A stretch of DNA of 62,355 nt. Source: a virus (taxonomy: Duplodnaviria; Heunggongvirae; Uroviricota; Caudoviricetes). Below, piece by piece: positions 21,001-27,000 of this stretch. Position numbers: made by a program. Positions within the stretch are counted from its first letter, which is position 1. Each line of letters begins with the position of its first letter. The DNA lies in IMG/VR virus record IMGVR_UViG_2534682166_000005. The stretch is one strand, 5' to 3'.

Positions 21001-24000
21001 CAGCAAGGTCATCCTCCGTACCCCGCCAGATTTCAGTCAGTGAATGTCCGCGATAATTAGGCATATCCCATTCAAGAAGAACCGAGCCAAATCCACCTGT
21101 CGCCTTAAAATTCAGCGGTTTTGTGGGAAAATCAACAGTCATTAAAGTACTGTCAATCTCAATACCCGGATTCAGTGCATATGAGGCACCACCCTGTGTA
21201 CGACGTCGGGCAAGTTTAAGGCCAACCAGCTCTTCACGGGTCACAAAAGCATGACGACCGTCGCCACGCTGCCCGGTGCCAATTTCCATATTTTCCACAA
21301 CAGCGGATAAATCCTTCCCCGCCCGCCACGGTTTTTTGCTCATATCGGTAACTCCGACATCGATGTACTCAGGGTTATTCGTTCCACCTGCCCAAATCCG
21401 GATACCATCACCTGCCAGTTTTGCCCGGTTGCTGCCGGAAGTCTCACCACACTTCCCTTAAACGTACCCGGCGCAAAATGAATAACAGGAACATCATCAA
21501 CCATAACGGTGATCCCCACCCGCTCAGGTGCTGGAGATTTCACCCTGATACAGGAAAAAGAGGTTCTTTCAGGCAATGAAAAAATTTTTGAATGCCACCT
21601 TATCGTGGACGGCAGAGAGCCCCCGGCAAGCACTGACATTTTGTCTCCTGTCACCACGCGCATCATATCTTTTGCGAGATCAACCCATGCGCAGTCAAAC
21701 GGTGTACTGAGATAGCGGATATCCATGTTCACCGGGTTGAAGACAAACACATCCTGCTTACCATCAGGTTTCGTGTAACAGGCAATGTACTCACCACGCC
21801 ATGAGTAAGCCACAATGGACGACGGATTAAACTGACTCTGCCACTGTTCTGGTGAAATGATTTTTTCCGTTACCACGGCTGTACTGCCGCCTGCATCAAC
21901 CGATACCAGGCCATTTGTTCCTGCATACAGCACGAATCCCTCCATCGCCACCATACTTCTTCGGCTCAGGCATGCCTGCATGGAAGGGATTTTGGAACCA
22001 GAAATTGTGGACGGTGATACCCCACTGAACAAATAAGGCTCCCCCTTTGTCGCCACCACCAGTGACGTTCCCAGCGGACAGATAGCTACAATATCTTCTG
22101 CCGTCGTGTGACGATTCACTTCCGGCCATGCATACGGCAGATACGCTTCCGAAAACATCACTTCATTACCGGCAAACCCGGCGGCAATACCGTTAGCCAT
22201 CAGGCAAAGGCCTGTCATATTCTCTGGCGGCGGCAGGTAATCCCATGTCGCCAGGGAAGGCCCAAGGTTTTTCGCCGGTATTTTGTCCGTGTAACTGAGC
22301 ACGGATGCATCCAGTTCAGCCACAAGTAAAAAATCCGACTCCCCTCCACCTGATGCAGAGCGATAAATCCGGCGACGTTTAATACTGGCATTCTGCAATG
22401 GCACCGGAGCCAGCGCCAGTTGTACCGCAGTTCCCGGAGTACGGAGTGTTACCTCCAGAGACGCCGGACCTGGCGGACCTTCTTCACCATAATCTGAGAC
22501 AAAGGTTTCCGTATAAAACCGGGTTTCATCATCATTCGGGTTATCGTCAGAAACATCACCGCCCTGCTGGACAGTACAGACAGGAGCTGTCGTCGGCGCG
22601 GGGATCCCAAGACGATACGATGATGTCGGGTGATTCCCGTCCCCTTTTGTGGCAATAGTCGCATCCGTCACTTTAGGAAAACGCCCGTCAGTGTAGTAAA
22701 TACGCCCGTGGGGGTCCTGAGCGATCGGACTGCGGATCACATCCACCACATCCGGCCATGCAAACCAGAAATCGTCACGGTAATGAAAAATTGTTTTTGG
22801 CTTAATTGTGAATGTTTTCTCAACCCCGGATATCTGACGTTCTGGTGTAATAACACCAAACCGGAAATGGCAGTCCTCCGCCAGTACAGCGGAATGCTCG
22901 GACAGCATGGATGTCACAACGCGCGGCATCATCCCACGCATCGTGGTGATATCGATATAGGGCATAGAAATTCCTTTGACTGCTTCAGGCTTAAAAATCA
23001 GGGGATTTATGATGGAATTCGCTAAAATCGCGATCGGTATCACTGCAACAGAGTGTTGCTATGATATTCTGGGCAAGACGTAACAACTCACTAATTGTTA
23101 TCAAACTTCTTTCTTCTGGTCGGGGAGCATGTTGCTCCCCTTTTTATTGCATCATTACGGCAGCCACTGCACAGAGCGTTACCACTGCACCCAGCCACAC
23201 AAAAATCTCCTGCTGTGTAGTGCTTCTTTACGTATTTCAGATTTGCCTGTTTCATGACAATTTATCAATTAGCATTAGCTAAACATTTTATACATAGTAT
23301 ACGATTTACATTATTTGAGAGCAGGTTGTGCTGTCAAATGCTCCAGCTCCAACCCAACGCCAGTTGTAGTGATGCCCTGCATGATACAATTTATACTTCC
23401 CGCTTTTCTTAATCCCATAAATTGGCATTATAGTTTCTTCCCCACCTAAATATGCTTTACCATGGCAAAGCGGAGTTGGCAAAGATTTGCAACCAGATAA
23501 TAATATCAATACAGCTAAAACACATTTGTACATTATCAACTCCTTCTAAACCTTATAAACAGATATAGTTTTTCCGTTTTGATTAAAGAGCCAGTTTTTA
23601 GAAACTATTGCACTATAATGCCGAGTATTGTTTGCAAATGATAATGGTGTGAATGAGATATTGGTTCCATCAAATGATAGAGTAAAGTTTTGATTAGGCC
23701 CGTTCGTTAAGCCCAGATACATCTTGGTAGAGTCTTGCGTTTGAGAAAGATGCGTAATTGAACAACCTAACAACGAACCATTTATTGAACCAGCCGGATT
23801 TTGTGTTTGCACACGGCTGGAAACGGCAGAGCCAGCACCTGTCGTTGTTGAGTTATTAGAATACCCTCCATAGTTATTGTTTACAGGAACAATTTGTATA
23901 TTTGTTGCCTGAACTAAAACAACAAAATTTGAACGACCTACAGTGATAGAAAAGTCCTGTACACTTTTCCCAACCATTTGCGACATATAAAACGGTGTAC

Positions 24001-27000
24001 TTAGCTTAAGTTTGGCACCTGCCGATTTCATTGACCTTTCACCAGTTACACTAACGGCAGAGGAGCCAACCCATCCGGAAGCAACCCCCATTTAACATCC
24101 TCCTGTCATTCGGACGATAACACCAACCATCTTCTGCCTCAGACTAATGGTTCTCTGTTCTCTGATTGTTTTATTATTTCTCTTTAAGGTCGCTAATCTC
24201 TTTACGCAGATTTTTTATTCCTTCAACTAACAGCGCAATAACACCATTATAATTTAATCGAAATCTCTCTTCACCAGATATGATATCTGTATCAGATGTA
24301 ACTAACTCTGGTTGAGCCTTTAACGCATCCTGTGCAAATAATCCCACAGATTGTTGCCAACTGCCATCAGCATTCTGTATTTCATACAAATAACCCGTTA
24401 GCAAGTCAAGCTTCTCCAGACAATTATCTATTCGTATTGCATTTCGCTTGTTGCGTTTATCCGAACGGATCTGAACATCGTTAAATGAGCCGTTTCCGGT
24501 CACCGTCAAATTGCCATTAATACCACCATTAAAAGTTTGTGCCTGAGTCCATGTATTGGCAGTAGTAAGCAGTTCTGTTCCTTGCCCGGGGGCTCCTGTG
24601 TCTCCCTTCGGTCCCTGTGGCCCTGCCGGACCTGCTGGTCCAGCCACCCCCGGATCGCCTTTGTCACCTTTTGGCCCCTGTGCGCCTGCCGGGCCTGCGG
24701 CTCCCGTATCCCCTTTCGGTCCCTGTGGGCCTGCCGGACCCGTATCGCCCTTGTCTCCCTTCGGGCCGGGAACGCCACCACCTGCAGCAACCTCTTCTGC
24801 CTTCTGTCTCGCCGCCTTGGCCTCATCCATTGCCGCCTTCACAGCCTTCGACGTGGCAGCCTTTGTTTCGTCATTACTGGCAGTATCACTACTTAGCTGC
24901 ACAATTCCCTTCTGTGCCGTCGTCGCGTCCACCACATTTGCTGCGCTGCCCGCCGGACCAGGCTCCCCGCGGGGGCCCTGAGGCCCAGCTTCGCCTCGTT
25001 CACCTTTCGGACCTGCCGGACCTGTCGCACCGGCATCTCCTTTCGGTCCCTGCGGCCCCGCCGGGCCTCTCTCTCCTGCAGGTCCGCGTAGCCCCTGCTC
25101 TCCCTGAGGCCCTCGTTCTCCCGGCTCACCTTTTTCACCTGCGGGACCGGCTGGTCCGGTGTCACCTTTAGGTCCTGCATCACCTTTCGGCCCGGGTGGT
25201 CCCCCCGGGTCTCCGGGGGCTCCTTTTTCACCTCTGGCCCCGGTTTCACCTCGTGGACCAGCAGGCCCCTGAATCCCCCGCTCTCCTTGCGGCCCCACCG
25301 GTCCTGTTTCACCGCGTGGTCCTTGTGCGCCTTGTGGACCTGTTTCTCCACGAGGGCCTGCATCACCTTTCGGTCCGGTATCACCTTTAGGGCCTCTGGC
25401 ATTCTCTGCCATACGCCTGGCCTCTTCAGCACTAACCGTAGCAGCCTCAGCACGTTTAAGAACGTCTCCGGCGGCCTCATGAGCCACTCTGGCGGTTTCA
25501 GCATGTTGTCTGGCATCATTCGCGTCTGCTGCCGCGGCCTTTTCAGACTCGCATGCCCGGGTCGCCGCTTCTGCAGCTTCACTGGCTTTTTGTCCGGCTT
25601 CAGCCGCCCTGCTGGTTGCCGTCTTTGCACTGTCAGATGCACTCTTCGCACTGGCTGCTGCACTGTCTTTTGACTGTGTGGCCTGAGTGTTTTTTGTCGC
25701 CGTGTCTTCATTCAGGCGACGAATATTGGCAAGGTCATCAGCCACATTATTCTGTATCTGCCGGAAATCTGTCAGCAGTTCTCCGGGTATGCTCACCTCA
25801 ACAAGACTGCGGCGTAACAGCATATTGAGCGTCACCGTACTTTCGGTCCCCTCAATACGCACACGTCCGTAGACAGCAGTCTTCCCTTTCACCGTCACCG
25901 AAACCGCATACTCCCCCGGATCCATCGTCATTCCGTAATACCCGCCGTCACGAGTCACTGCTGACGCACTGGTGCCGCTGAGCGCATCCGGTGAAACTGT
26001 CAGCGCCGTCAGGGTAATATTTGCGCCTGATATCGCCTCACCATCAGGAGATTTCAGCGTCCCCGAAACAACAACACTCACATTCCACCTCCGTTAAACA
26101 CCTTCTTGCGGGCAGACAATGCACTGTCTGCACCCTGTTTAATCCCGAGCTGCTCAACAAAACTCTGATAATGTTGTGCTGCCAGTCCTGACTCTGCACC
26201 ACCGGCTGCATCCTTGCTGAATGCACGAAACAACATCCAGTCAACCAGCGGGTTAACATAAGCCTCTTCCAGCGGTACTGGCGTATCATCGTCCTGCGTC
26301 AGAACATACACTGCCTCCGGTATGCGGCTTACCACTGCATCAATACTTACAGCCTTGTCAGGTGCAGGAAACAGCCAGAACACGCGCGGGGCCAGGTCGC
26401 TGCTGATAAAACATTCCGGTTTGCCCTTCACCATGTGCCAGTCGGGATACTGCGCATCCAGCACCTCCCGGGATTGTGGTCTGACTGCACTGCCGTCGCT
26501 GAGGCATATCACGTCAAGAAGCTGTATTGCGCCATCAGGCAAAATCTGACGGGCGCCAGGAACACAATTCAGCGTTTCCAGACTTGCGCCTGCATCCGGC
26601 CTTGCCAGAATCACCGCCCGCACAGCATCATTGTAATAATCACACAGCTCAGCCAGAGGCCAGCGCACCATCATCGGGTCAACCAGTTGCGTGTTCACTC
26701 GTCCGATGATTTCAGTAATCGTCGTCATCAGTAAAACCTTTGTCTGCGGACAGGATTGCGGTATGAGGAGTACGGACTTGTCGCCAGTGTGTCGCGATAT
26801 GCCCGACGGATACCCTCAGAAAACAGCACAGAGAAATACTGTGCGCGCGACGGGTCTGACCATGAAACCCCGGTCTGCATGAACAACCGTTCAAGCGCCC
26901 CTGCAGCCACTTCTTCAGACCATGCCCGCAGTTCATCCTGCACCTGACGGCTCCCTGCTTTCGGAGCAACGGCATAAAGCACACTCACCTCTCCGGGCGA

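Follow-up and report, generated by a model that had tools for sequence, protein, structure and literature searches.

Cor lipoproteins of the phages HK022, N15 and phi80 inactivate the outer-membrane receptor FhuA and exclude FhuA-dependent phages (PMC3594210; bioRxiv 10.64898/2026.03.26.714494), and Cor has also been reported to protect against colicin M (PMC3594210). Cor and the Llp lipoprotein of phage T5 have been predicted to share a fold (bioRxiv 10.64898/2026.03.26.714494). In gp38 adhesins, such as those of T2, T6 and S16-type Straboviridae (PDB 6F45; PF21721 and PF05268), an N-terminal domain attaches the protein to the fibre tip and the C-terminal domain carries the specificity (PMC3157838). 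Here, we analysed a stretch of 62,355 nucleotides from a tailed virus (IMG/VR record IMGVR_UViG_2534682166_000005), hereafter called the window, in which genes for a small lipoprotein and for a protein of 181 amino acids (aa) follow a collagen-repeat tail-fibre gene. A first, sequence-only reading of the window had proposed that the two proteins form a superinfection-exclusion pair. We instead regard this region, with a probability of about 0.8, as the distal end of a host-recognition module, made up of a gp38-like adhesin and a Cor protein acting as set out below, and not as a two-protein exclusion system. Its features are the following:

24174-26081, minus strand: tail-fibre gene, 635 aa, collagen repeats (Pfam, PHROG 366)
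24174-24464, minus strand: predicted self-cleaving chaperone part of the fibre, Ser540 to stop (motif and S74 domain boundaries)
23546-24091, minus strand: gp38-like tail-fibre adhesin, 181 aa (Pfam Gp38_N, PHROG 1121, 6f45_D profile match, AlphaFold2 model)
23306-23533, minus strand: cor, 75-aa lipoprotein (NF047972, PHROG 1119, RefSeq)
23156-24640: mosaic low-GC cassette of fibre tip, adhesin, cor and about 150 bp, ~1.4 kb (blastn breakpoints, GC dip)

The lipoprotein and the 181-aa protein

All genes lie on the minus strand in this part of the window, and the two small open reading frames (ORFs) downstream of the fibre gene are present where the sequence-only reading had placed them (23306-23539, 77 aa with a TTG start, and 23546-24091, 181 aa). 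The adhesin gene begins 82 nt after the fibre stop codon and has an AGGAGG Shine-Dalgarno sequence 7 nt before its ATG; the gap between the adhesin stop codon and cor is 12 nt. Within the longer cor ORF, the ATG at 23533 is preceded at a distance of six nt by an AAGGAG Shine-Dalgarno sequence and gives a product of 75 aa, as in RefSeq; this is probably the true start. Both genes are AT-rich, as had been noticed earlier, with a GC content of 38.5% (cor) and 39.6% (adhesin), whereas the window as a whole has 49.9% and the fibre gene 56.6%. When compared with diverged homologues, the proportions of non-synonymous (pN) and synonymous (pS) differences were 0.10 and 0.80 for the adhesin gene and 0.25 and 0.82 for cor, and both genes are thus under purifying selection. 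As pN lies far below pS and the hidden Markov model (HMM) matches reach E 2e-33 and 6e-66, both ORFs are real, far beyond chance.

The lipoprotein matches the NCBIfam equivalog NF047972, "phage exclusion lipoprotein Cor", with 71.1 bits against a cutoff of 31 (E 5.9e-20), and PHROG 1119 over residues 3-76 of the 77-aa ORF (E 2.1e-33). It is 42-44% identical to the Cor proteins of N15 and HK022 and 31% identical to that of T1, and a tblastn search with the protein found 212 phage records, including N15, HK022, mEp phages, ES18 and T1, with identities of 28-51%, near-identical Stx-like records excepted. By inspection, the precursor has the layout MYK-CVLAVLILL-SG-C15-K, that is a signal peptide of residues 1-14, the lipobox L-L-S-G-C that had been recognised before, and a lysine at position +2, where a residue other than Asp is associated with sorting to the outer membrane; the N-terminus is basic and is followed by a hydrophobic core. 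Residues C15, C23 and C71 are invariant in 72 Cor homologues, and the aromatic core motif (F/Y)NW(R/Q)WV is present as YNWRWVG, of which NWRWVG is common to the window protein and the Cor proteins of SSU5, N15 and HK022. The Cor proteins of phi80, N15, HK022, mEp167 and T1 share full-length homology, size, lipobox and the three invariant cysteines with the window protein, and, like theirs, the gene of the window is part of the region for host recognition in a temperate phage. Membership of the Cor family was thus established directly, and on sequence grounds the lipoprotein is a true homologue of phi80, N15 and HK022 Cor and not a mere likeness in size and position. It is predicted to be an outer-membrane lipoprotein that is lipidated at Cys15. 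Together with SSU5-like and DUF7941-backbone elements, the window Cor belongs to a subgroup with the motifs LPxPxC(Y/H)G and NWRWVGxGAF. Whereas known cor genes follow PHROG 557 and PHROG 425 genes behind a siphovirus gpJ gene, the window, from a short-tailed phage, has its cor directly behind the gene for a gp38-like side-fibre adhesin. RefSeq already names the gene cor, and in ten phage records the small gene is called "Cor" or "Cor like", so that a gene spotted from its context alone was correctly identified and is already contained in public annotation.

The AlphaFold2 model of Cor is confident (pLDDT 83.5) and shows a small three-stranded sheet. In profile searches against PDB sequences, FhuA-bound T5 Llp (8a60_B) was one of two joint-best matches of the Cor profile, though a weak one (E 0.043); with the single sequence of either protein as query, such searches yielded only noise.

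In the 181-aa protein, the only Pfam match is Gp38_N (PF21721, E 1.1e-19, model positions 1-40 of 40), which corresponds to an attachment domain at residues 1-46. PHROG 1121, "tail fiber adhesin", matches over the full length (E 6e-66), and the family profile retrieves residues 1-47 of gp38 from Salmonella phage S16 (6f45_D, E 1.3e-9). Membership of this second family was again established directly. Because of these three matches, we predict that the 181-aa protein is the receptor-binding protein itself and a component of the virion, which speaks against its proposed role as an exclusion partner. The N-terminal attachment domain and the modular division into attachment and specificity parts are shared with gp38 of T2, T6 and S16-type Straboviridae (PMC3157838), as is the position of the gene directly downstream of a fibre gene ending in a self-cleaving chaperone domain, the cleavage being predicted in our case. 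However, the window protein is shorter (181 aa versus about 250-260 aa), sits on the fibre of a podovirus prophage and has neither the glycine-rich motifs nor the hypervariable segments in its C-terminal domain. No match to PF05268, the glycine-rich gp38 specificity domain, was found at E <= 0.01, there are no glycine runs in the sequence, and a beta-sandwich is predicted in place of them, and we therefore refer to the protein as gp38-like and not as a canonical T2/T6 gp38. Its closest relatives are the short adhesins of Klebsiella and Proteus T4-like phages and of SSU5.

The sequence-only reading had described the 181-aa protein as Ser/Thr-rich and of low complexity. The former holds (24% Ser+Thr; 50% S/T/N/G/Q), but low complexity is confined to residues 1-17 and about 70-92, and residues 100-181 are modelled by AlphaFold2 as a confident Ig-like beta-sandwich (pLDDT about 90). 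In the monomer model, no order is seen at the N-terminus, as one would expect if this segment folds onto a trimeric partner, and residues 81-98 form a low-confidence Asn/Ser/Thr/Gly loop.

The fibre protein (PHROG 366, tail fiber) consists of an N-terminal anchor, collagen repeats (Pfam Collagen, E 2e-31), a Phage_fiber_2 repeat (E 1e-14) and a C-terminal S74 intramolecular-chaperone domain (Peptidase_S74, E 3e-8, residues 540-595). An S-D-K-R-N-K motif (S-x4-K) starts at Ser540. S74 chaperone domains are self-cleaving. Immuno-electron microscopy placed ORF67, the homologue of this fibre in phage Sp5, at the tail end (PMC5155283). Some database homologues of the 181-aa protein are labelled "distal long tail fiber assembly catalyst", which would make it a fibre-assembly chaperone similar to T4 gp38 or lambda Tfa and absent from the finished virion. 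We consider this very unlikely, as the label stems from T4 gp38, which is another protein (PMC3157838), no Tfa or TAP chaperone family of Pfam matches the 181-aa protein, its N-terminus matches the S16 adhesin that was resolved bound to the fibre tip, and the fibre has an S74 chaperone domain of its own.

A two-component superinfection-exclusion system, formed in the lysogen by the lipoprotein and the 181-aa protein, would agree with the adjacency of the two genes (12-nt gap), their low GC content and their co-inheritance. Nevertheless, it is extremely improbable: the 181-aa protein shares its fibre-attachment domain with a virion adhesin of solved structure and contains neither a signal peptide nor a membrane segment, cor occurs without it in N15, HK022 and T1, and, according to the accounts of Uc-Mass 2004 in PMC3594210 and the bioRxiv preprint, cloned cor alone was reported to be sufficient for exclusion in other phages.

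The exchanged cassette and the linkage of cor to the adhesin

In blastn comparisons with Min27 and AU5Stx1, which have a 933W-type fibre end, similarity to the window ends at 23155 and returns at about 24592-24701. These breakpoints exactly bracket the dip in GC content, which falls to 36-41% across 23001-24500, and the exchanged unit therefore consists of the fibre tip, the adhesin gene and cor. Gene order and cassette boundaries were thus directly observed; judging from the alignments, the cassette replaces the 933W/Min27-type fibre end and is horizontally exchanged. Shigella phage 75/02 Stx has the C-terminal part of the fibre in common with the window (78.5% nucleotide identity) and has tail-tip, PHROG 557 and PHROG 425 proteins that are 95-98% identical to those of the window (tip 98%, PHROG 425 96%), but encodes another Gp38_N adhesin and no cor.

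A 54-aa Cys-rich ORF at 23091-23255 (orf24 of phage 86) is probably not a gene, as it straddles the breakpoint at 23155, differs from phi296 mostly by indels and is omitted by RefSeq. A GC-rich hairpin at 23122-23140, downstream of cor, is conserved in the unrelated prophages P-EibD and GER2. This hairpin was also the sole good candidate in a terminator scan, and its T-run lies on the opposite (plus) strand. An Rfam scan of 22900-24400 gave no match.

For a census, we scanned 51 fetched loci with HMMs for the N- and C-terminal domains of the adhesin, Cor, PHROG 557 and PHROG 425. At all 29 loci that have this adhesin C-domain and enough downstream DNA, many of which are redundant, cor lies within 1.2 kb. 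The genes occur in three arrangements, namely adhesin-cor in Sepvirinae, adhesin-cor in a backbone containing DUF7941 (~225-kb elements, Salmonella), and adhesin-557-425-cor in SSU5-like phage-plasmids and Kluyvera. At 12 loci with other Gp38_N adhesins, no cor was found within about 6 kb. The presence/absence pattern of Sepvirinae is repeated in the DUF7941 backbone, in which one element (L012) has another adhesin and no cor and a second one (L046) has this adhesin together with cor. In two backbone comparisons, the window versus 75/02 Stx and L046 versus L012, the adhesin type and cor are hence seen to arrive together, and their co-inheritance is a direct observation. Mildly new, in our view, is how tightly one type of non-canonical gp38-like adhesin is coupled to Cor in podovirus, siphovirus-plasmid and large-element backbones alike.

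At three related loci (L006 5001-6306, L009 5001-7816 and L012 4198-5513), two alternative Gp38_N adhesins are stacked behind one fibre gene, and a 61-aa remnant of the fibre chaperone domain lies between the two adhesins of L009. Such stacks resemble a store from which fibre tips could be exchanged.

The receptor question and the role of Cor

We propose that the collagen-like fibre trimer would fold by means of its own C-terminal S74 chaperone domain, which would then cut itself off, and that the adhesin would attach by its N-terminal gp38-type domain to the fibre tip exposed in this way; the scheme of T2 and S16, fibre self-cleavage followed by capping with the adhesin, most likely applies here. 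The C-terminal beta-sandwich would contact a surface receptor, and the protein would act as an accessory adhesin that speeds adsorption, with BamA as the essential receptor of this phage type. Cor, lipidated at Cys15, would be delivered to the outer membrane, on its periplasmic side, and inactivate an outer-membrane receptor from the inside. By homology with N15, HK022 and phi80 Cor, this receptor would most probably be the TonB-dependent transporter FhuA. Phages and colicin M needing it would be shut out, and new virions would not be wasted on infected cells or debris. The fibre tip, adhesin and cor move together as one horizontally exchanged cassette.

Llp of T5 spares the progeny from debris. 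The logic of Llp and pb5 in T5 is the same, a small outer-membrane lipoprotein encoded beside a receptor-binding gene. On the other hand, the window adhesin is unrelated to pb5, the sequence and fold matches of Llp to the window Cor do not reach significance, and T5 strictly needs FhuA, whereas the window phage type does not.

A number of observations weigh against the picture drawn here. The adhesins of phages phi296, phi315, phi367 and phi419 are 99.4% and their Cor proteins 97.4% identical to those of the window. All four phages lyse 54 outer-membrane mutants of the Keio collection, fhuA and tonB among them, and their titres drop by two to three logs in the presence of purified BamA (PMC12502783). 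FhuA is thus not the essential receptor of the cassette-bearing phages, Cor cannot fully exclude the phage's own kind, and the earlier suggestion that the lipoprotein blocks the receptor of its own phage is weakened. Cor is also found without this adhesin, beside PHROG 557/425 genes, in N15, HK022, T1 and four further loci (L048-50, L051), and the linkage between adhesin and cor could therefore be due to shared descent and not to function; the census spans only three or four independent arrangements. A promoter scan of the cor region found 4 promoter-like sites versus 4.4 expected by chance, and neither a promoter nor a terminator signal beyond chance points to expression of cor in the lysogen. 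In Foldseek searches, the Cor model had no significant structural match to Llp or Rtp45, Llp (7qjf) being found at rank 41 with E 1.1 and TM scores of 0.46/0.53. In the literature, we found no experiment on this Cor or this adhesin, and no study on the receptor of this adhesin or on Cor in Stx-like phages; the mass spectrometry in PMC12502783 is reported for the head, the fibre and one structural protein only.

As fhuA and the other knockouts are still lysed, the receptor of the adhesin must be dispensable on K-12, similar to what is seen for the side fibres of lambda. Cor may block such an accessory receptor, it may spare the progeny from debris, or it may guard the lysogen against unrelated FhuA phages. 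One could go further along the last of these lines and view cor as a moron that benefits the host by protecting it against unrelated FhuA-dependent phages and colicin M, unconnected to the receptors of this prophage. HK022 cor has been annotated as a moron, protection against colicin M has been reported (PMC3594210), and the cassette-bearing phages do not need FhuA. We nevertheless think this unlikely, since an unrelated moron would not be expected to co-occur so strictly with one adhesin type, and cor lies 12 nt behind the adhesin gene within the late operon; as no promoter or terminator was detected above chance, cor cannot be demonstrated to be an independent moron.

A further explanation concerns the genes beside which cor is found in other phages. 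The window encodes their homologues as well, together with a tail-tip gene:

20075-21343, minus strand: J-like tail-tip fibre protein, 422 aa (Pfam Phage_Tail_Tip; conserved in BamA-dependent short-tailed Stx phages)
19782-20060, minus strand: PHROG 557 protein, 92 aa, downstream of the J-like tip gene (homologues upstream of cor in N15, HK022, T1 and SSU5)
19159-19785, minus strand: PHROG 425 protein, 208-aa ORF, 205 aa with the RefSeq start (homologues directly upstream of cor in N15, HK022, T1 and SSU5)

According to this explanation, the partner of Cor would be the PHROG 557/425 pair and not the adhesin, the cassette would derive from an SSU5-like adhesin-557-425-cor arrangement by loss of the middle genes, and the adhesin would bind, for example, the LPS core or a porin. 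In its favour are the 557-425-cor triad of N15, HK022, T1, the SSU5-like elements, L048-50 and L051, the presence of both genes in the window itself (19159-20060), and the view derived from the BASEL collection that loci downstream of gpJ are receptor-specificity loci carrying cognate exclusion genes (PMC8594841). Compared to the FhuA locus of T1, N15 and HK022 (gpJ, 557, 425, cor), the window differs in gene order and in the 425 allele: the pair lies 3.2 kb downstream of cor, behind the tip gene, and cor does not directly follow it. The PHROG 425 protein of the window is 21-24% identical to the N15, HK022 and T1 alleles, which share 53-59% among themselves, and SSU5-type and Sepvirinae-type alleles are 18-27% identical to the alleles of the FhuA phages and to each other. 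Across the same groups Cor remains 39-45% identical. Since the 425 alleles diverge while Cor does not do so to the same degree, a link of Cor to the adhesin is favoured in this prophage, as far as the few independent lineages sampled suggest. Furthermore, the 425 allele is about 96% identical in Sepvirinae without cor, and PHROG 425 was therefore rejected as the determinant of Cor presence within this group, in which cor tracks the adhesin; the tip protein, too, is 98% identical in 75/02 Stx and Min27. Finally, in the DUF7941 backbone the loci L006-8 have the adhesin and cor but no 557/425 genes within about 5 kb (L046-47 are short contigs). The PHROG 425 protein is a possible alternative partner of Cor, given that its homologues lie directly upstream of cor, and we consider the explanation as a whole conceivable but doubtful.

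The PHROG 557/425 genes are carried without cor by all short-tailed Stx-type phages examined, and their products may be unrecognised terminal receptor-binding proteins of these phages, perhaps for BamA.

Returning to the adhesin and Cor as the distal end of a host-recognition module, their coupling hints that both address the same receptor, probably FhuA, and suggests an adhesin directed at FhuA. One might tentatively speculate that the adhesin C-domain binds FhuA or another TonB-dependent transporter and that Cor is its dedicated antidote, which would make the cassette a self-contained unit for binding and shutting a receptor across different backbones. If so, a TonB-dependent transporter would for the first time be the target of a gp38-type adhesin, and a Cor protein would for the first time have a side-fibre adhesin as its partner instead of a central tail-tip protein; BamA-dependent Stx-like phages would gain a second, blockable receptor, through a cassette exchanged among short-tailed prophages, SSU5-like phage-plasmids and a ~225-kb element. 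The locus also adds a case in which genes for binding and for blocking a receptor are passed on jointly between phages of widely differing morphotypes. Should the coupling of adhesin and Cor be functional, it would provide a rule for guessing the accessory receptor of Stx-like podoviruses from sequence alone, and lysogens, including outbreak strains, would be predicted to be resistant to FhuA-dependent phages and colicin M. Such resistance matters for phage-therapy cocktails and for the strain reach of Stx-type phages.

The prophage and its other genes

From its gene content, the window is a 933W-like short-tailed (Sepvirinae) prophage that is stx-negative. The neighbouring genes are 933W-like and code for an N4-gp56-type capsid protein, portal, terminase, a 2783-aa LPD38 protein, the J-like tail-tip protein, Lom, a nanS-p esterase and Q. 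The cor/adhesin region is 100% identical in the 2011 outbreak strains of E. coli O104:H4 (2011C-3493, HUSEC2011) and is found at >=99% identity in 53 of 5426 complete E. coli genomes (~1%); ten phage records, including Stx2 phage 86 (cor/orf22), Shigella phage POCJ13, phi296, phi315, phi367 and phi419, have the same stretch at 97% identity. The counterpart locus in O104:H4 2011C-3493 is O3K_RS12625/12620 (100% nucleotide identity), and the RefSeq annotation of this prophage contains no stx genes; it is a stx-negative sibling of the Stx phages in the outbreak strain. The 181-aa gene is called "tail fiber adhesin" in Pharokka/RefSeq phage records and "hypothetical protein" in the RefSeq bacterial genome. 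Our analysis corrects the latter annotation, as the O104:H4 "hypothetical protein" beside cor is predicted to be the receptor-binding tip of the prophage fibre.

The gap between the Q antiterminator gene and nanS-p (40671-41435), which is the stx site in Stx phages, is without toxin genes and without tRNAs. Inside it, Rfam identifies a full-length STnc100 small RNA (165 bits, 40894-41099, minus strand). Other Rfam matches, at 44110-44297, 46174-46348 and 17967-18107, are adjacent C4 antisense and isrK RNAs and a sok antitoxin RNA; with a Hok/Gef gene annotated near Lom, these are typical regulatory and addiction elements of prophages.

The giant 2783-aa LPD38-domain protein (6355-14706, minus strand) is the counterpart of Sp5 ORF80, which is unusually large and needed for tail formation. 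Between the terminase and lysis genes, a gene of ~38% GC lies on the opposite strand (35850-36464, plus strand) and carries the RefSeq name LPS core heptose(II)-phosphate phosphatase. This gene is likely a moron, whose product could change the LPS core and hence phage adsorption.

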